Of a stretch of DNA of 64,000 nucleotides, positions 4,260 to 33,131 are shown piece by piece (within the stretch, counting starts at the first letter, position 1; each line of letters starts with the position of its first letter). The DNA comes from a virus. Its lineage: Duplodnaviria > Heunggongvirae > Uroviricota > Caudoviricetes. Below the pieces are notes generated by a model, which had not been told where the DNA came from, searched no databases, and saw only the letters and a list, made by a program, of their open reading frames with translations. Location: IMG/VR virus record IMGVR_UViG_2565956719_000002. The stretch is one strand, 5' to 3'. The position numbers and the translations under genes were made by a program.

Positions 4260-6179
4260 ATGGAACAGTTCAATATCAATAAAGGGGTGACGATCAAGCC
4301 TGGGCTTGACGTGCTTCCCCCGCCAGTGACTGATGATGAATATCGCGCATTAATGGCCGGTGAGGACCGCTATCTGATGACGGAATCCAACACCCTGGAG
4401 GAAATCGAGGCTACGTTCTTCTATGACACGCCGATCCACTGGTGTGCTACGGATTTACTGGAGGCGATTAGTTCTACTCGTTTGCAGTTACACCGGACCA
4501 TGCAGGCATTTGTCCGGGCATTGAACCAGAAGCTGAATGGTACCGGAATCTCTGCGGGGAGTGATAAAACGGGGGATGTGGCCCAGAGCGGCGCGCGCGC
4601 GATCGGCGGCGCTGAAATTGGCCGGGCACGTAACGTTAACGGGCTGCCGGTCTTGCCAGCCATTATTCCGCTCAGTGATGGTCAGACTATCAGCATTCTG
4701 TTTCATAGCCCGACAGCGGAAAACCGGATCACCAATAGCGATACGCTGGTTGCTTTCCAGTTCTTACTGAATAAAAAAGACGTTACTCACACCGTTGCTC
4801 CGATGAGTGGACGTGATATGACGCTGGCGCAGGTCACCATGAAACTTGCCAACCTTGCAGAGAAAAACTCGGCAAAATTCCAGCGTGCGCAGAAGAAGAA
4901 AAAAGCCCTTGTTGATGAAATAACCCAACTACAGGCTGACAGTGACCAGAAAGAGGATGCCATGAGCGACCTCGCGGATCAGGTGGCAGCGGTAGAAGGG
5001 CAGAAGGCAGATCTGGAGCAGAAAATTAACGCTGTTGCATCGGAAGCGGATTCTCTTTATGAAGAGAATGAGCGTTTGCAGACGGAGATTGATCAGCTCA
5101 ATCGCACTGGTGGGCGCGATACCATTGCTCCAGCGGGGATGACTGGTGGGCACTCTCGCGCGCTGACGGATCGCCTTGCCAGTATCAAAAATCGTATGCA
5201 TATGGACGGGGAAGTGACGCTCAGTAATGGTGCATCAATGAAGCAATTCATTGGGGGCGGCGAAGGGTATATCCAGTTAACCGATCAGGATGGCAGCGTA
5301 TACATGATCAAGGCTAAATCCATACAGGGTGTGGACATGGCAGATGCGATCGGCAAGCTGTTTAAAGCCTATAAAGCGGGTAATGTATCGGAATACCTGG
5401 TCCAACCAGAAGAACATAAACCGGAAAACGTCGAACCTGAACCAGCGGAGGATACCGGTAGCTCTTCGCCTGAACCAGAAGTCTCTGTAGGTGCATATCG
5501 ATATGCCCTGCAAATGCGTCCGGCGGCCCCTGGCGCAATACCTGAAGGTAACAAAGCAATTCTGCCGCGCCCTGATGAAGGTGACCCGTATTATGAATAT
5601 GCACGCTACGGCATTGCTACTTACGATACCCCGCTTTCTGATCAGCAAATGAGTGAGTACGACCTGAAGTTATTGCCTCGCGAGGATTCTTTCGACTTCC
5701 TGGCGAAGACACTTACTAATGGTCCGTTTGGCAAATATGCACAAAAAACTCTGGATCTGGCCACCAGCTCACCAGACGAGTTCCGCGTAATGCTGAAAAC
5801 TCAGTTTCAAAAAACTTTCCCCAATATTGCGTTTCCGGGGGGCGCTGGCACCGAGAAAATGGTGCAGAGCATGATCAATACATTGCAGGCCGAAGTCGGT
5901 GAGATTACTCAGCCAGAACCGGCCCCGGCACAGCCTGATGAAACGGTTAGCGAAGCAGATGCAGAGGCTAATAAAGCCATTGAATATCTCAATAACGTGA
6001 TGGATATGCAAAGCACTGACATGGCGGAGATCCGTAACGCTCGGGGCAATGTCCGGGAAGCGATTGCAGCCCTTCAGGCTGCCGGACGTTTTGAGGAAAA
6101 CGAAGAGCTGGTTAACGGCGCAGCTCGCCACCTGGCTGATCTGTTGGTAGCAATCCAGAAAGCGGGGGTAGCGGCATGA
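4260..6179 (+). CDS. darA: DarA-like head-internal anti-restriction protein
   Basis: 639 aa, coiled-coil middle, acidic stretches; operon context hdf-darA-ddrA-ddrB. Confidence 0.65.
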   Translation: MEQFNINKGVTIKPGLDVLPPPVTDDEYRALMAGEDRYLMTESNTLEEIEATFFYDTPIHWCATDLLEAISSTRLQLHRTMQAFVRALNQKLNGTGISAGSDKTGDVAQSGARAIGGAEIGRARNVNGLPVLPAIIPLSDGQTISILFHSPTAENRITNSDTLVAFQFLLNKKDVTHTVAPMSGRDMTLAQVTMKLANLAEKNSAKFQRAQKKKKALVDEITQLQADSDQKEDAMSDLADQVAAVEGQKADLEQKINAVASEADSLYEENERLQTEIDQLNRTGGRDTIAPAGMTGGHSRALTDRLASIKNRMHMDGEVTLSNGASMKQFIGGGEGYIQLTDQDGSVYMIKAKSIQGVDMADAIGKLFKAYKAGNVSEYLVQPEEHKPENVEPEPAEDTGSSSPEPEVSVGAYRYALQMRPAAPGAIPEGNKAILPRPDEGDPYYEYARYGIATYDTPLSDQQMSEYDLKLLPREDSFDFLAKTLTNGPFGKYAQKTLDLATSSPDEFRVMLKTQFQKTFPNIAFPGGAGTEKMVQSMINTLQAEVGEITQPEPAPAQPDETVSEADAEANKAIEYLNNVMDMQSTDMAEIRNARGNVREAIAALQAAGRFEENEELVNGAARHLADLLVAIQKAGVAA

Positions 6180-6541
6180 CACTATCAGCTATTGAGTTAA
6201 TGGATCTCAGCGATAAGTTGGATGCTCTGATGTCCAAAGCGGCTACCGCGAGTGGCATGGAGTTGCTGGATATCAGCGATGAAATTGACCAGATCATGCA
6301 ACAGATGGGGTACGGTGTGTCCGGCGGCAGTAGTGGCGAGGAAAAACAACCTTCGGTACATGATGGTGTGCCAAAACTGGTTGCTGATTTCCTGGCTGAT
6401 AAATTCGTCGATCAGAGCACCGATGCATTTATCGGTACCTTGCAGGATTTGAGTCAATATGTTGGCACATACATCGACCTGGACCAGGTTAAACAGCACA
6501 CGGCGGCATGGATAGCCGCCAACATTAAAGAGGCAGCATAA
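6176..6541 (+). CDS. DdrA-like small acidic protein
   Basis: 121 aa, start overlaps darA stop. Confidence 0.45.
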   Translation: MTLSAIELMDLSDKLDALMSKAATASGMELLDISDEIDQIMQQMGYGVSGGSSGEEKQPSVHDGVPKLVADFLADKFVDQSTDAFIGTLQDLSQYVGTYIDLDQVKQHTAAWIAANIKEAA

Positions 6542-6553
6542 GGCGTAACAGGG

Positions 6554-9541
6554 ATGAGCTTAAGCGATCAGGTGGTGATGGCCACCAGCATAGAAACGCT
6601 GATCGAGCTGCTAAAAAACCTGCCCGATTACGGGCGGGTTTCGTATGTGGTGACAGCGAAGGGAGACGAGGTAAAAACAGCGTTTGATATCGTCGATGCC
6701 TCAGCTCTTTTGGTATCCAATACTCTGGATGGGAAAATTAATCCAGACTATCCCCAGGAACTTCAGCCGCGCGACCGGACCCGCGCATCCAGCCTTCTTC
6801 AGGTCAACCAGATATCCAAGGATTTGCGTCCTGCCCAGCTTACCGACTCCGGTTTATCCAGCCATGGCGCGCCGATAATTGGTGAGGACAATGCCATTGA
6901 GTCAGGTAATGGACGGACCATGGGGATCATCAAAGCCTATCAGGACGGCAATGCGGATCGGTATCGTGAGTACCTGATTAAACATGCGACCGAATTCGGA
7001 ATACGACCTGAAAAGGTTGAATCAATGACGGCTCCGGTACTGGTGCGCCGCCGGTTAACGAAGGTTGACCGTGTTCAGTTTGCCAAGGACTCAAATATTT
7101 CTGATCTCCAGGAAATGGCAGCCAGTGAAAAGGCTTTTGTTGATGCCGACAGCATAACTCCGGCGATGATGGCGCTGTTTAACCCATCAGAAAGCGGAGA
7201 TCTGCTTAGCCGCAGTAATGACGCGTTTATTCGCGGATTCATGACGCAAGTTGGTGCCACACAGGCTGCTGGCCTTGTAACGGAAGATGGGCGACCAACA
7301 CGGCAACTTGTTGACCGTATACAAAACGCGATCTTTGCCAAGGCATATAAGGATGCGCGCCTGGTAAGGATGGTTGCAGAAGAACCTGATCCGGATATGC
7401 GTAATGTTCTGACGGCGCTTAATGCGGCAGCCAATGATTTTGTCCAGATGCAGGCTTTATCAGGAGAAGCGCACAAGCAGGCTGTGACAACTATTGTTGA
7501 TGGCATTGAGACAGCGGATAGCCTCGATAAAAAGGCGCTGGAGGCATTGAAAGATGCGGTAGACCTGGTAAGGCAATCGAAGGAGTCAGGCCAGCATATT
7601 ACCGATGTTATTGCTCAGGGGGATATGTTCAGCGAAACGGCCCCGGAAGTGAAAGCACTCGCGTTGTTCATCGTCGCGAATAACCGTAGCGCGAAGCGTA
7701 TGGCCACCGCCTTTAAGTTGATGGCTCAACGTATCAATGATGAGTTACAGCACCAGGGCCAGGCGCTGGGGGATATGTTTGGCGGCGGCGATGTGTCGTT
7801 ACAGGATATCCTTCGCCAGGTGTCTCAGGAACTGGAAAACGAAGGCATGCAAGGGATATCCGGCGGTCTTTTCGAGTCCGTTTCCGGCGGTAGTTACAAC
7901 GGTGTTGCTCCATATACCAGCTTGCTATTACATCGGGCATCCGGCATCAAAGATATTATTCATCTGATCAGGCTGCTTTCCCGTGCAGATCCCCAGGATG
8001 AACAGCTTGTTCAAGTGCTTGCGCATTTTGTTCGAATGCCTGTTGCCGACGTGAAAAAATGGTGCCGATTATTCGGTATCAGCAATTCGTTACTTCGCGG
8101 CTTGTTAAATCACGCATCCTCCCTTGGGCGCGATGGCTTTGACGAGATAGCGCAGGCGATAAAAAACGGAGATATGCCACCAGCTATTGACTGGTTTTCC
8201 ATTCGCCCAACCAGGGTGAAAGCATTCCTTAGCGCGGCGCATTCGGCATCACCATTGGCAGAAATGGTTCAGAGGTTGTCGCTCATATTCACAGACCATA
8301 CCGCGTTGGGTGATCTGACTCTGGACGAGATGAAAGACGCCTCCATTCAGTGGGCCGATCAACAAAATGAGGTTAACTCAGACTTCTTGCCAGCATTCAG
8401 GAAGGCCGTTAGTAAAGCGGATGATGCCCGTGGAATTCTGAAGGCATTTAAGGCATTGCAAAGTCGTGTTAATAAACATGTCGGTGATATCGATGGGGTA
8501 ACGGCGGAAGGCCGGGATATCCTTAAAGAGCACGGCATAACGCCAGAGTTTATTGATGAGATCAGGACTGATATGCAGCGTGAGGTCGTATCGTCCCTGC
8601 AAATCGTAGCCAGAGCGTTGGCGGATGCTAATCCGAAGAGTGCGGCCATTGTTAACCGGGTTATTGGTGATATTGAAGCATCGGAGGGCATGGGGGCGCT
8701 GAAACTCTTCCTTTCGCGAGCGTTTAATCCTAACGGCAATATTCTCCCTGGCATTATTGGTGAGGCTAAAAAGTATGTCAGTGAAGAAGAACTTGAGCAG
8801 CTTGACCAACTACTTAAGCGATTCTCATATAATCCGCAGACACGCTGGCAAATGAATCAGCGAAGTATGGGTTCGGTCCACGAGAAAGTGTTATCTGCCA
8901 TGAACAGTGCGATCGCCAACTCATCCGTATCTGAAGAAAAAGCTCTTGAGTGGGCCGACTCTTTTATCACGGAAGAAGTGGAAGAAGCCCGCGCTGGACA
9001 GAATGGTGGGATAGACCTGCGCAAGGAACTTGCTGATATTTATCGCCTGACCGGCGGTAAAATTTCGACCTTATCAAAGGTGGTTCACCACCAGGGAAGG
9101 GCATATGCAAATCTTAATGGTGTTGTTGCTGTCGATTTGCACGATGAAAATGCAAATGCACTGTGGCACGAGCTGGGTCATCATCTTGAGTACAGTAACC
9201 CGGGTTTGTTAGAGAAAGCCAGGTCATTCCTGAAGGCCAATGTTGAAGGGGATAAGCCATCTTTCGTTAATATTGGTGGGCGTGGCAAGCCTGAATGGTG
9301 CTTCAGATCTCGATTGAGTGATATTTATATGGCGAAGGTATACCCGCCAGCCTCAGTAAGTAACACCGGGAAAATTCGGCAGAAATCACCGACTATTTCC
9401 AAAACGTCAGCAACGGAAGTATTCTCTATGGCTCTTCAGTTGTATCATGACAAAGAGGCCGCTGCCGCATCACTGATGAATGGTGACGGATTGCTGGAAC
9501 TGTTATTAGGTGTGGCAAAGGAGCTAAATAATGCAGATTAA
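6554..9541 (+). CDS. DdrB-like large head-associated protein
   Basis: 995-aa ORF continuing the darA operon; position only. Confidence 0.5.
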   Translation: MSLSDQVVMATSIETLIELLKNLPDYGRVSYVVTAKGDEVKTAFDIVDASALLVSNTLDGKINPDYPQELQPRDRTRASSLLQVNQISKDLRPAQLTDSGLSSHGAPIIGEDNAIESGNGRTMGIIKAYQDGNADRYREYLIKHATEFGIRPEKVESMTAPVLVRRRLTKVDRVQFAKDSNISDLQEMAASEKAFVDADSITPAMMALFNPSESGDLLSRSNDAFIRGFMTQVGATQAAGLVTEDGRPTRQLVDRIQNAIFAKAYKDARLVRMVAEEPDPDMRNVLTALNAAANDFVQMQALSGEAHKQAVTTIVDGIETADSLDKKALEALKDAVDLVRQSKESGQHITDVIAQGDMFSETAPEVKALALFIVANNRSAKRMATAFKLMAQRINDELQHQGQALGDMFGGGDVSLQDILRQVSQELENEGMQGISGGLFESVSGGSYNGVAPYTSLLLHRASGIKDIIHLIRLLSRADPQDEQLVQVLAHFVRMPVADVKKWCRLFGISNSLLRGLLNHASSLGRDGFDEIAQAIKNGDMPPAIDWFSIRPTRVKAFLSAAHSASPLAEMVQRLSLIFTDHTALGDLTLDEMKDASIQWADQQNEVNSDFLPAFRKAVSKADDARGILKAFKALQSRVNKHVGDIDGVTAEGRDILKEHGITPEFIDEIRTDMQREVVSSLQIVARALADANPKSAAIVNRVIGDIEASEGMGALKLFLSRAFNPNGNILPGIIGEAKKYVSEEELEQLDQLLKRFSYNPQTRWQMNQRSMGSVHEKVLSAMNSAIANSSVSEEKALEWADSFITEEVEEARAGQNGGIDLRKELADIYRLTGGKISTLSKVVHHQGRAYANLNGVVAVDLHDENANALWHELGHHLEYSNPGLLEKARSFLKANVEGDKPSFVNIGGRGKPEWCFRSRLSDIYMAKVYPPASVSNTGKIRQKSPTISKTSATEVFSMALQLYHDKEAAAASLMNGDGLLELLLGVAKELNNAD

Positions 9542-9842
9542 AATCGCAGCGCCATTAGGCGGAGATGCCATTATCGAATTTGATGATAATGAAGAAGTTT
9601 CCGGGCGTTTAAGCATTATCTCCGGTGACATTACCGAGGACATGATCGCTGAAGCCATAGCTGGGGCAAATCCCAATAGCTATATGGGATTCGTTAACAC
9701 CCTTGATGCTCCCGCAAGTGATGTTCTCCGAACGCTGCATCTTTACGCTGGCTGGTTTGTTGATTGGCCAGCAGTAGATGGTGGCGATGAGGACGACGAC
9801 GACGATGATTTTGGTGATCATGTAGACCAGATCGTATATTGA
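9531..9842 (+). CDS. Small acidic protein with poly-Asp tract
   Basis: 103 aa, AAGGAG upstream, start overlaps ddrB-like stop; C-terminal GGDEDDDDDDFGDH. Confidence 0.4.
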   Translation: MQIKIAAPLGGDAIIEFDDNEEVSGRLSIISGDITEDMIAEAIAGANPNSYMGFVNTLDAPASDVLRTLHLYAGWFVDWPAVDGGDEDDDDDDFGDHVDQIVY

Positions 9843-9845
9843 AGA

Positions 9846-9870
9846 AATCCCGCCAATTGGCGGGATTTTT
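9846..9870. terminator. Rho-independent terminator between convergent operons
   Basis: AATCCCGCCAATTGGCGGGATT hairpin followed by TTTTT. Confidence 0.7.
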
Positions 9871-9873
9871 ACC

Positions 9874-10968
9874 TCACGAGAAACTCTTTTCTGATGTCAG
9901 CCAACAGTGCTCGTGCATATCTCTTGGTGGTTTTTCGACAAATGCCTCTTCAGCCACATCCTGCCAGGGGATTTGTTTAGCCCATTCAGTTATAGCGTTA
10001 TGGTTTGCCGAGAATAACGGTATTGTATAGGCCTTCAGCCAGTCTAATGTGCTGGAGTTGTGTTTTTGAGCGTGATGTTTCGCATGGTGTTTGGCGATCA
10101 CGATCGTAGGCACTACCCATTTACTACCGTCAGTCATTGTGAAGTGCATATTACGGGGAACAGATGACTTTTCCATCAACTCCCGAATCCCTGGGAATTT
10201 CCCCAAGATCAATCGGCGATATTCATCGCTATTGCGCCCACCAAACTCTTTGGCTTTGAATTCAAGATATGCTTCAGAAACGAGAGGTGAATCCTCTGTG
10301 TTTAGAGTTATCGCCGTGAAAAAACCAGCAGGATTGTTTTTACTATGGGCCAACCGGTGATGCGAATCATAAAAGTACCCTTTCTCGCGTTCCGATGGTT
10401 TCGACAGCAACAGCAGGCGCGAGTCATAATTGGTTAAATTGCCAGTTATCACTGCATGAGCGCGATCGCTGATTTCCGCCGAGTTAATAACGATGAAAAG
10501 ATCGTGCGGTCCAGTAAAACCAGCCAGAGACTCTTCGTTATTCAGACAATAGGTTATATAGACGCATCCCCATGTTTCACTGATATGCACCAACCCTTTG
10601 TCAGGGTGTATTCTGAAATAATTGCCAAGAAAAGTGTGTTTTTGGGTAACTCGCTCCCAATAACGGAACATATAGTCAATTATTGTTTTTCGACAATCGT
10701 TAATCGCAGGAGAAACAACCACTGTACGGGAACACGAATACAGTATTGTTTGCAGGATGCTAATCACTGCCACAATAGAGGTTTCCCCAATACCATGTGG
10801 TGTGGTGGCAGTGATTTTGGCTCCGGTGTTCTTTATCGCGTTAATAATTTTTGCTTGATGAGGTGTTAACTCAATATCAAGCAACTCTTTTGCTGCCAGT
10901 TCCCAATTGTCTTTATACCGTTCTATCAGTGCTAACCAGGCAGATTCATTCTGTATACGATTAATCAC
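9874..10968 (-). CDS. Terminase large subunit (PacB) ATPase-domain paralog lacking the nuclease domain
   Basis: 364 aa; GYFYDSHHRLAHSKNNPAGFFTAITLNTEDSPLV matches [34 protein letters not shown] of the 494-aa PacB in this window; Walker-like TTPHGIGETS and DLFIVINSAE; C-terminus unrelated. Confidence 0.6.
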   Translation of the reverse strand: MINRIQNESAWLALIERYKDNWELAAKELLDIELTPHQAKIINAIKNTGAKITATTPHGIGETSIVAVISILQTILYSCSRTVVVSPAINDCRKTIIDYMFRYWERVTQKHTFLGNYFRIHPDKGLVHISETWGCVYITYCLNNEESLAGFTGPHDLFIVINSAEISDRAHAVITGNLTNYDSRLLLLSKPSEREKGYFYDSHHRLAHSKNNPAGFFTAITLNTEDSPLVSEAYLEFKAKEFGGRNSDEYRRLILGKFPGIRELMEKSSVPRNMHFTMTDGSKWVVPTIVIAKHHAKHHAQKHNSSTLDWLKAYTIPLFSANHNAITEWAKQIPWQDVAEEAFVEKPPRDMHEHCWLTSEKSFS

Positions 10969-11869
10969 TTTCCACCTCTTCCGTGGTGTTTTCTTGCAGT
11001 TCTGTTAATGCAGCACGACATAGGTTCCGGGCATTGGCTATAGCCACACTTTTGACTTCATCCGTCATCGTGCAGGTAATGTACTGATCGAGTTCTTCAG
11101 CGCGGATGATGCTTTTGCCAATCAGAAACTGTATTTGCCATAGCAGATCGGCATCCATGATCAGAATTTCTGCCGGGCCTTCAGGGCCAGCCGGGAAGGA
11201 AACATAAGACTGTTTGCCCAGGCCGACAACTCGACAACTTGCTTCAAGAATTGCGCGCTTGAGGTCTGACTTTATAACGGAAACAGGTTGATTTTCACCA
11301 GTGATTACGCCGTTGACATGGAAAGGCATGTAGCTTGAAATACGCTCTACTTTCCACACGCCAGCAAGCGATCCTTCATGCAGCACAATGGGGGTAACCG
11401 CGAGTTTCATCTCACCATATAACTGCTGGCAGATAGCTGGATTGCTGAATACATCTAAAGGCTCACATTCAAACAGCGGCGCAATCTGCATGAGGTCCAT
11501 CATGGTCATCCCTGGGGTACGAGCAGTAATGAATTTGCGCATACCAGTATCCATTGCGCTCCAGATTGCTACACCATGCTTTTTGCTCACTTCTTCAGTA
11601 AAGCCAAGGTGGCACATGATGGTTTTTTCGATAGCCAGATCAGAGATAGAAACCTTTTCGCCAGGTACTCCATCATTATTGATGGTCACTTCGACACTCT
11701 GGCCATTACGTAGGCGGTATTGAATGGTTTTAGTATTTTGTGCTGTCATAGTCTTTTCTCTGCTTAAAAACTGATGTATTGCGTCTTCAGGTGGGTTAGG
11801 AATGTTTTCCCACCAGCGAAAGCAATATCTCGTGGTGTTCTGTTCGTTAAAAACGCGTGCCATTGCCAA
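10961..11869 (-). CDS. Hypothetical protein (alternative start near 11752)
   Basis: 302-aa ORF upstream of and overlapping the PacB-like paralog; internal ATG (MTAQ) would give about 261 aa. Confidence 0.45.
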   Translation of the reverse strand: MAMARVFNEQNTTRYCFRWWENIPNPPEDAIHQFLSREKTMTAQNTKTIQYRLRNGQSVEVTINNDGVPGEKVSISDLAIEKTIMCHLGFTEEVSKKHGVAIWSAMDTGMRKFITARTPGMTMMDLMQIAPLFECEPLDVFSNPAICQQLYGEMKLAVTPIVLHEGSLAGVWKVERISSYMPFHVNGVITGENQPVSVIKSDLKRAILEASCRVVGLGKQSYVSFPAGPEGPAEILIMDADLLWQIQFLIGKSIIRAEELDQYITCTMTDEVKSVAIANARNLCRAALTELQENTTEEVESD

Positions 11870-11946
11870 CTTTGGCGTTTTTTAGCGAGTTCGTGCTTTT
11901 GTTGGCGTTTGGACCACCGCTTTTCTTTCAGTCGTTTTTTACTCAT
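11764..11946 (-). CDS. Small highly basic protein (uncertain)
   Basis: 60-aa K/R-rich ORF starting 5 nt after ssb stop; overlaps the longest form of the next ORF. Confidence 0.25.
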   Translation of the reverse strand: MSKKRLKEKRWSKRQQKHELAKKRQSWQWHAFLTNRTPRDIAFAGGKTFLTHLKTQYISF

Positions 11947-11951
11947 AAACT

Positions 11952-12440
11952 CTAAAACGGAATATCGTCTTCAAAGTCCATTGGAGGTTCGTTATTGGCG
12001 CTGCTCTGAGGTTTGCCGCCACCGCTGTATTGCTGGTGGTTTTGAGGTTGGTTTGACTGCCCCCAGCCATTTGAGGACTGTGAATCGTCGCGGCGAGTGC
12101 CGATCATTTGCATGGTGCCGCCCTGGCTGACGATAATTTCCGTCGTGTAACGTTCTACACCGGCGTCATCAGTCCACTTACGGGTTTTAAGTTTCCCTTC
12201 GATGTAGACCTGAGAACCTTTTCGTAAATACTCACTCGCAATTTCAGCAAGTTTTCCGAACAAAACGACTTTATGCCATTCTGTTTGCTCTTTCTGTTGG
12301 CCCGTTTGCTTATCGCGCCATGATTCATTCGTTGCGATGCTGAGTCTTCCGACTGCGCCGCCATTTGGTATATACCTGATCTCCGGGTCTTGCCCCAGGG
12401 TACCAATCAGGATGACTTTGTTTACACCGCGTTGTGCCAC
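11952..12440 (-). CDS. ssb: Single-stranded DNA-binding protein
   Basis: OB-fold N-terminus [16 protein letters not shown], Gly/Gln-rich tail, C-terminal DFEDDIPF; GTG start with AGGTAAG upstream. Confidence 0.9.
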
Positions 12441-12459: not shown

Positions 12460-12476
12460 AAATTAATTAGAGCAAA
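12460..12476 (-). promoter_or_regulatory. C1-operator-like 17-mer upstream of ssb
   Basis: TTTGCTCTAATTAATTT on minus strand, 15/17 to ATTGCTCTAATAAATTT. Confidence 0.45.
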
Positions 12477-31626: not shown

Positions 31627-31643
31627 CAATTTATTAGAGCAAG
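31627..31643 (-). promoter_or_regulatory. C1-operator-like 17-mer upstream of antirepressor module B
   Basis: Minus strand CTTGCTCTAATAAATTG, 15/17; about 315 bp upstream of leader ORF B. Confidence 0.45.
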
Positions 31644-31646
31644 ATT

Positions 31647-33131
31647 TTACTCATTAAGCCATGCCAGAGCTTCATCAACCTGCGCTTCGTCTTCGACGCT
31701 AAGCACTTCATCCTGGGGAACATAATCCGCCAGCATAGCGAAACAATATGTATCCCAATGGTCTGGTGAATGCAGGTTGAGTTTTTTCTTCATATCCTCC
31801 TTACTCATCACCTTCCATTGACCTGCGGAGTTAATCCCTACAGGGATTTTCGACGCTTCCTCAATAGTTTCATTACCCTTATCCAGTCTCATACGACCAG
31901 ATTTTACGGCCTCTGCGGCTTGAACGTTGGCATAAGCACGTTTATCAAAGTACAGGCTCTTATCTTCACGGCTATGCATCTTTTTACCCCAGCGTATACG
32001 CTGTACGGTAATACCATAATACTCGTACATCAGATCCGCCGTTGCTTTACCCAGGCCATCGCCGTCTATCGCTATGGTAATATTTGGGAATCGCTCAGGA
32101 TTACATTCTGCGAAAATTTTGGCGGCAAGCTGCGTTTCTGTAACGTCTGTGTATTCCAGCATTCGATAGTTGATTACACGGCGTTTATTTCTCTGGCCGG
32201 ACACCATCATGATATTGATAACGGACTTATCCCGTCCCGTACCACCAGCAACGTCCACACATGCAAGCCAGCCCCATCCTTTGGCAATCTTGACTTTCCG
32301 CCGCGTCGCACGTTCAACCTCATCACGTCCAAGAAGGAAGCCATCCTGTGATTTAGGGAATAGTCCGCGTACCTTAATCATGTACATAGGGTTATCACGC
32401 CCGCCGTACTCCGCCAGCTTCATTTTGATAAATGCTGGCGTTACCAGCGGTGATTCCTCACTGTTAAGCGTGATCGCCGTATAAACGCCATCAGGGTTAC
32501 CAGGACGCTTGGCCAGTTTATGGTGAGTATCGTAGAAATAGCCGCTTGGGCGTGTAGGCTGTGACAGTAATAAGATGCGGTTATCCTGTCCGGTAAGAGC
32601 ACCGGTGATGATACCGAAAGCTCTATCACTGACACCGGAGGCTTCATCGATAATATACAGAAGATGATCTGCGTGTTCACCGGCGAGAGCTTCTTCACTT
32701 CCCAGACGAAAGCCCTTCGGTACTACAGTCCATACACCTTTACCAGTAACCTCATAGAAAGCGGTTTCTGTCAGAACAAAATAATCAGCAAGCCATGGAA
32801 AACGGCTGGTGGCAGTAGCCCAGTTTATCTTGATGTACTTGAATATACCGGTCATTACCTGCTGAATTTTGTTCGCAACGATAATGGCGCGGGCACCGGG
32901 ATACATGATTATGAACAACATGATCATGATAGAAGTCATGTCTGATTTCCCGGTACCGTGACCAGACGAAACAGATGTCTTGCTACCCTGTTCCTGCACA
33001 GACTCAATAATCAGATCCTGCTGCCAGGTAGGTGTTTTGCCGAACAAAACATCAGCGGCAGCAATCCAGTCATAACGATATAGCGCCACCAGCTCGCGCC
33101 AACGTGGATCCGTTACGCAACTTCTGGCCAT
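31647..33131 (-). CDS. pacB: Terminase large subunit PacB
   Basis: 494 aa; ATPase motifs ([18 protein letters not shown]) and RNaseH-like nuclease motifs ([21 protein letters not shown]); follows pacA. Confidence 0.85.

Follow-up and report, generated by a model that had tools for sequence, protein, structure and literature searches.

Large terminases are among the most conserved of phage proteins, and packaging is also acted upon by the non-enzymatic Ppi-type proteins of satellites such as the Staphylococcus aureus pathogenicity islands (SaPIs), which bind a terminase subunit. The gene explored here lies in a stretch of viral DNA of 64,000 nucleotides (IMG/VR record IMGVR_UViG_2565956719_000002; hereafter the window), which is a P1-like phage-plasmid. 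Its product is encoded on the minus strand at 9874..10968 (stop codon included; GTG start; called from the list of open reading frames (ORFs), BLASTP and PHROG), is referred to throughout as the 364-aa (amino acid) paralog, and is related to the large terminase PacB's ATPase domain. The closest described systems are stand-alone phage proteins that look like the large terminase (TerL) ATPase domain, namely T4 vs.8 and Bas60 Ksap2, both of which engage Avs2 (bioRxiv 10.64898/2026.04.30.721860; PMC11564622); Ksap2 (Bas60_220) is a small phage protein that activates KpAvs2 (PMC11564622), and the isolated ATPase domain of a terminase suffices to activate both EcAvs2 and Upx (PMC11564622; bioRxiv 10.64898/2026.04.30.721860). 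As regards the locus itself, isaA-IS1-isaB is a variable region of P1-like phage-plasmids (PMC9603915, PMC6906374). Within the literature available, our search found no report of P1-like elements with a PacB paralog, and what is new here is the placing of a paralog with a predicted dead active site, together with its candidate partner IsaA, in this known variable slot and in a clade of dead PacB paralogs.

In a BLASTP comparison the 364-aa paralog is 35% identical over 266 residues (E 1e-53) to its parent paralog PacB, the functional large terminase, which is encoded on the minus strand at 31647..33131 with Walker A and B motifs and nuclease half intact (phrog_2, terminase large subunit, E 3e-40). 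Both proteins also match the profile phrog_5902, PacB with an E value of 2e-151 and the paralog along its whole length (protein residues 1-364, profile 1-359; E 1.2e-186). Structure prediction with AlphaFold2, performed both for this protein and for IsaA (see below), gave for the paralog a mean predicted local distance difference test (pLDDT) score of 87 on an alignment of 41 sequences, with values above 90 across most of residues 10-260, and on comparison of this model with viral models by Foldseek the named matches were mostly large terminases. The similarity covers the whole ATPase domain and is thus not limited to a generic P-loop, as the initial annotation had conceded that it might be. 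The protein contains a TerL-type P-loop ATPase domain of the additional strand catalytic E (ASCE) class, and the N-terminal 265 residues (10174..10968, minus strand) are shown by alignment and modelling to retain what is predicted to be the complete PacB/TerL packaging-ATPase fold. A sequence search of the PDB with the paralog profile returned no match, and Pfam, NCBIfam and PADLOC contained nothing for either the 364-aa paralog or IsaA.

The C-terminal RNase H-like nuclease of PacB is missing from the paralog, which ends at aa 364, and the window contains no PacB-nuclease-like sequence besides pacB itself, including the region downstream of the paralog. The stop codon (9874-9876) is followed by a hairpin (9845-9868) and then by the stop of the convergent gene hxr (9842), and no frameshift restores a full terminase. 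The central proposal of the initial annotation, a separate gene for a paralog of the PacB ATPase domain devoid of a nuclease and carrying an unrelated tail of about 100 residues, is therefore upheld by the BLASTP match, the fold and the absence of any nuclease remnant.

The fold is apparently retained without the residues on which its catalysis would depend. When the paralog is aligned with PacB and with about 150 representatives gathered by exhaustive HMMER searching, the motifs G-H-G-x-G-K-S/T and h-h-D-E-A-S-G are present in nearly all of the full-length relatives (~450-580 aa). In the 364-aa paralog the Walker A equivalent (aa 55-64, TTPHGIGETS; 10777..10806, minus strand) reads PHGIGETS, the P-loop Lys being replaced by Glu62, while the Walker B equivalent (aa 156-166, DLFIVINSAEI; 10471..10503, minus strand) reads IVINSAE, with Asn162-Ser163 in place of the Asp-Glu of PacB and its relatives (IIDEASG); the invariant Arg of PacB-type terminases (SQPTR; Arg194 equivalent) is likewise replaced. 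The degenerate motifs are common to all of the close relatives (21/21), the Walker B being either the same or N-A-A. With the Walker A Lys, the Walker B Asp-Glu and the conserved Arg all replaced, ATP-driven work is very unlikely, and alignments and model together lead us to regard the 364-aa paralog, with high confidence, as a functional non-catalytic TerL-ATPase pseudoenzyme. The initial annotation had counted a repurposed motor among its options and the complete TerL ATPase fold is present, as an active packaging or translocation motor would demand; but the substitutions E62 and N162-S163, the lost Arg194 equivalent and an equal degeneration in the orthologues speak to the contrary, and leave this option a probability close to nil.

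The remainder of the protein (aa 266-364; 9877..10173, minus strand) forms a tail domain, modelled as a beta-hairpin and three helices including the helix HHAKHHAQKH (AlphaFold2 pLDDT 62-80). This tail is 58-61% identical in distant orthologues that share 48-53% overall. The possibility that it represents a nuclease remnant left by an internal deletion, hinted at by a MAFFT alignment with the C-terminus of PacB, was rejected, the hhalign probability against PacB being 0.4%. A profile of the tail found no match in the PDB, and among Pfam families there was only a weak match to DUF5076 (E 0.008, in two of five tail sequences). The representative search, on the other hand, uncovered P0140, a stand-alone 123-aa homologue of the tail (38% identity) that follows an N-terminal CxxCxxCxC cluster. 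Because P0140 carries the homologue on its own, the tail can be considered an independent domain, and the same protein shows it, as far as sequence comparison goes, to be mobile as well.

With PacB, therefore, the paralog shares common ancestry, the ATPase fold, phrog_5902, N-terminal helices specific to the P1 family and a FYDSHH/SPLV/GGR block; it differs in lacking the Walker A Lys, the Walker B Asp-Glu and the nuclease half, in carrying an unrelated C-terminal domain, in belonging to the early ssb unit and not to the pac operon or the vicinity of pacA, and in being accessory rather than universal. T4 vs.8 is similar inasmuch as it is a separate phage gene for a terminase-ATPase-like (gp17) domain beside the true terminase; compared by description, it differs in that vs.8 is reported to keep Walker A/B and to activate EcAvs2, whereas the 364-aa paralog has lost both motifs and adds a tail of ~100 aa (bioRxiv 10.64898/2026.04.30.721860). 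Ksap2 resembles the paralog in being accessory, taxonomically narrow and TerL-ATPase-like in structure, and in its relevance to terminase-sensing immunity (PMC11564622).

One question then is whether such a protein is maintained. The reading frame is intact in 21 of 21 related IMG/VR viral contigs, and the ratio of non-synonymous to synonymous substitution rates (dN/dS) is ~0.28 against relatives down to 89% identity, lying between 0.23 and 0.31 in five of six comparisons and reaching 0.73 in the sixth, a low-divergence pair; by the same measure, constraint on the tail is no weaker than on the ATPase part. These values show the 364-aa paralog to be a conserved protein under purifying selection. 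In distant P1-like phages, the PacB of which is 56% identical to that of the window, an IsaA homologue (43-48%) is directly followed by a paralog of 358-366 aa (48-53%), which is only 34% identical to the PacB of its own lineage. The occurrence of orthologous pairs at this distance indicates an old duplication that has persisted, the paralog being kept beside PacB in at least three P1-like lineages.

These data bear directly on the view that the gene is a functionless, decaying relic of a pacB duplication. Such a relic would be expected to have lost its catalytic residues and nuclease half and to be dispensable, and the gene is indeed absent from P1; moreover, in the record of Escherichia phage vB_EcoM-813R1 (L003 2875-3965) the ortholog is apparently frameshifted near residue 334, within the tail and close to the 3' end. 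Yet this copy is the sole disrupted one among the close relatives examined, and the intact frames, the low dN/dS, the constraint on the tail, the confident fold prediction and the full-length orthologues of distant lineages have already largely refuted the relic, which we consider scarcely tenable.

The distribution of the gene is broad but patchy. In PLSDB it is found in 120 plasmids from Escherichia, Salmonella, Klebsiella and Shigella at 93-100% nucleotide identity, against 617 records with pacB and 336 with isaA, corresponding to about one fifth of P1-like plasmids; in one of these plasmids, NZ_CP009168.1 of E. coli 1303, window positions 9843-10968 recur at 100% identity. The wider homologue family was delineated by the exhaustive representative search and by scans of IMG/VR, a word-indexed search having proved insensitive (3, then 10 matches). 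It includes at least ten further representative clusters of 230-444 aa (P0024, P0026, P0027, P0029, P0030, P0033, P0034, P0061, P0062 and P0079) in which neither Walker motif is present and the nuclease half is missing. The majority of these dead paralogs end immediately behind the ATPase domain (~252-268 aa) or bear a different C-terminal domain (P0030/L078), the tail of the 364-aa paralog being confined to the P1, P0002 and P0024 groups. In a neighbour-joining tree 11 of 12 dead sequences cluster beside the PacB clade with a bootstrap value of 55%, while the tail-bearing group together with P0026 attains 91%. A related-locus search with P0027 gave no match. In another P1-like lineage (L089 6330-7789; IMGVR_UViG_3300045988_166783) a dead paralog of 263 aa, consisting of the ATPase domain only, overlaps by 4 nt the stop of a homologue of the Ref/RecA-dependent nuclease, which implies that dead paralogs are coupled to different upstream partners according to lineage.

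In the window this upstream partner is IsaA. The initial annotation had correctly noted a co-oriented protein of 260-300 aa but assigned it to no recognisable family; it is the IsaA of P1 (PHROG 2326). The longest frame, beginning at TTG 11869 (10961-11869, minus strand), would encode 302 aa and is 95% identical to P1 IsaA (phrog_2326, E 8e-149). Since the homologues and PHROG 2326 start at the internal ATG 11749, the likely product is one of 262 aa (10961..11749, minus strand), and the apparent 40-aa N-terminal extension is accounted for by a conserved leader in the stretch between isaA and ssb (window 11740-11951). The isaA stop and the paralog start overlap by 8 nt (GTGATTAA; 10961..10968, minus strand, read directly from the sequence), and the overlap is preceded by the Shine-Dalgarno-like GAGGTGGA, an arrangement which suggests translational coupling of the two genes; in the distant orthologous pairs there is comparable overlap or tight spacing. 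IsaA homologues are present in most of the P1-like lineages examined, usually without the paralog.

The pairing with IsaA, and elsewhere with a Ref-type nuclease, raises the alternative that the 364-aa paralog is an accessory of DNA metabolism, an ATPase-like scaffold that, within the ssb operon, would bind DNA or bring in a partner for recombination, replication or the processing of ends at an early stage. However, the AlphaFold2 model of IsaA (pLDDT 74.6) has only weak fold matches, and the family alignment contains no nuclease signature, E135 and D221 being the only invariant acidic residues and no Lys being invariant. Furthermore, IsaA occurs without the paralog in most lineages, and both isaA and isaB are non-essential in P1 (PMC10695390), so that we consider this alternative an improbable one.

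Transcriptionally, the 364-aa paralog appears as the last gene of a co-oriented unit composed of ssb, isaA and itself. The first gene, ssb (11952..12440, minus strand; ORF list and P1 annotation), is preceded by an equivalent of the P1 operator Ossb/Op21 for the C1 repressor (12460..12476, minus strand; ATTGCTCTAATAAATTT with two mismatches, and P1 annotation). The 17-bp consensus of this operator has 15 matches with up to three mismatches in the window, against 0.31 expected, among them those at 12460, 24684, 28515, 31627, 45715 and 61716. A simple promoter scan detected no internal promoter for isaA or the paralog, which is consistent with, although not proof of, co-transcription with ssb. 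At the other end, the hairpin at 9845..9868, flanked by the stops of two convergent genes, the paralog (9874) and the Xre-like hxr (9531..9842, plus strand; ORF list and P1 annotation), which bounds the slot, comprises 10 GC-rich base pairs (RNA fold -20.7 kcal/mol, z -5.4) and is likely to be a bidirectional terminator ending the ssb-isaA-paralog unit, although a simple terminator scan did not call it. On this basis we infer that the 364-aa paralog is expressed early, upon C1 derepression.

The predicted timing is pertinent to a further alternative, in which the protein would serve as an inter-phage weapon, a dominant-negative subunit entering or blocking the terminase motor, the small terminase or the portal of rival P1-like phages or satellites. 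What speaks for it is that the protein is a catalytically inactive copy of an oligomer-forming subunit, and that its gene is borne as sporadic accessory cargo by a prophage-plasmid. Behind a C1 operator, however, the gene is expected to be off in the lysogen, precisely when exclusion is needed, and its product would risk poisoning the PacB of its own phage; we therefore find this alternative highly improbable.

A role closer to that of the parent protein would be the modulation of packaging, the 364-aa paralog competing with PacB for PacA, the portal or pac DNA and so delaying or tuning pac cleavage and headful packaging, or altering transduction. Such a regulator would have a functional analogue in the Ppi-type proteins, which share neither sequence nor fold with the paralog, do not descend from a terminase, and are encoded by satellites for use against a helper phage. 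What would fit this reading is that the N-terminal helices (W11, Y18, W22) and the FYDSHH...SPLV...GGR block (aa 197-259) are the regions best conserved between PacB and all dead paralogs, and that the paralog is retained beside PacB in several P1-like lineages; but these conserved positions are for the most part aromatic residues or Gly and may reflect no more than the core of the fold. Besides, reference P1 and some 80% of P1-like plasmids have no paralog, and P1 packages normally. Lastly, the gene occupies a variable slot in the early ssb unit, between isaA and hxr and not beside small terminase or head genes, ~21 kb from pacA/pacB. Taken together, these considerations make a packaging modulator rather unlikely.

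The neighbourhood of the 364-aa paralog otherwise agrees with the annotated P1 map (ddrB, hxr, isaA, ssb, lyz, pro, prt), and its slot adjoins the dar anti-restriction operon. Reference P1 agrees with the window as far as position 9840 and from 10945 onwards; between these points it carries low-GC isaB and IS1 and lacks the paralog. The suggestion that the paralog might be the intact form of P1 isaB was rejected, IsaB (201 aa) being unrelated at the level of both DNA and protein; isaB (L001 2952-3557), in a segment of 36.8% GC and with no Pfam match, is other cargo of the slot. Phages SJ46 and Ro157c2YLVW harbour between ssb and isaA a 684-bp gene of the Tad2-like family PF11195, associated with Thoeris anti-defence, and no paralog (L088 2662-3507; L087 3379-4056); the window and reference P1 are without the Tad2-like gene but retain the conserved leader. 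In distant lineages the order Tad2-like gene, IsaA, paralog recurs at another genome position, between cre/dut and humD/doc. In distant P1-like contigs (L005/L028 ~5200-7213) the module is preceded by two small ORFs, 114 aa and 158-162 aa long, as well as by a dUTPase and the Tad2-like gene; the whole set lies downstream of cre and looks like an accessory island. The comparison clarifies the isaA-IS1-isaB region of reference P1, which is one state of a modular slot for Tad2-like, IsaA, dead TerL and IsaB cargo.

A role in conflict or in regulation is suggested for the 364-aa paralog by its accessory distribution, its hotspot location beside dar and Tad2-like genes and its probably early expression; decoy and regulator were the other two options of the initial annotation. 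We tentatively propose that it is a non-catalytic mimic of PacB, serving as an accessory, early conflict or regulatory factor. Structurally it would imitate the ATPase domain of PacB; produced early, once C1 repression is lifted, and probably in a complex with IsaA, it would act by binding rather than catalysis, offering a terminase-like surface without an ATP-loaded active site; this surface would occupy or divert a terminase-recognising factor, be it a host sensor of the Avs1-3/Upx kind or a partner of PacB, before PacB accumulates. The activation of EcAvs2 and Upx by an isolated ATPase domain, together with the precedents of vs.8 and Ksap2, renders a PacB mimic plausible, and the mechanism as a whole is one that we hold to be possible, at rather less than even probability.

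Several considerations weigh against this proposal. EcAvs2 and SeAvs3 recognise the terminase active site plus bound ATP (bioRxiv 10.64898/2026.04.30.721860), so that a paralog without an active site may be invisible to these sensors rather than inhibitory, and the binding of a mimic would normally activate terminase sensors, not block them. That a Tad2-like gene and the dar operon lie nearby is guilt by association, and none of the paralog, IsaA, Hxr, P0030 and P0140 had a match in PADLOC-DB at E <= 0.1. IsaA, as the coupled partner, is itself without an assignable function, and the attribution to a C1-controlled operon derives from P1 annotation and sequence. A more specific version of the PacB mimic, namely a counter-measure to terminase-sensing immunity, in which an ATP-free copy of PacB would bind Avs1-3/Upx or shield nascent PacB and so prevent activating oligomerisation, the whole clade of dead paralogs being decoys, is in our estimation unlikely.

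Whatever its role, a dead terminase domain that is conserved and under selection, and whose gene shares an accessory hotspot with known or likely anti-defence genes in a widespread phage-plasmid family, provides a test case for the use of inactivated copies of a phage's own core proteins as decoys, shields or regulators. As P1 is genetically tractable and naturally without the paralog, gain- and loss-of-function tests would be simple. Should the role be packaging control, this would constitute a new kind of terminase regulator in the standard transduction phage; should the counter-immunity mimic be true, it would be the first phage to neutralise pattern recognition of a conserved core protein by means of an inactivated copy of that protein.

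Some minor features of these loci may be recorded. In the ssb-isaA spacer, at 11764-11946 (minus strand) and in a frame different from that of the isaA extension, there is a putative ORF for a very basic protein of 60 aa (MSKKRLKEKRWSKRQQKHELAKKRQ...). The C1 operator match at 31627-31643 falls immediately below the stop codon of pacB (31647), within 20 nt of it. Among the dead paralogs, that of L078 7872-9287 (P0030; 444-471 aa) bears a different C-terminal domain of ~180 aa with no Pfam match, and the same contig also carries a normal pacB on the opposite strand, ~13 kb away.

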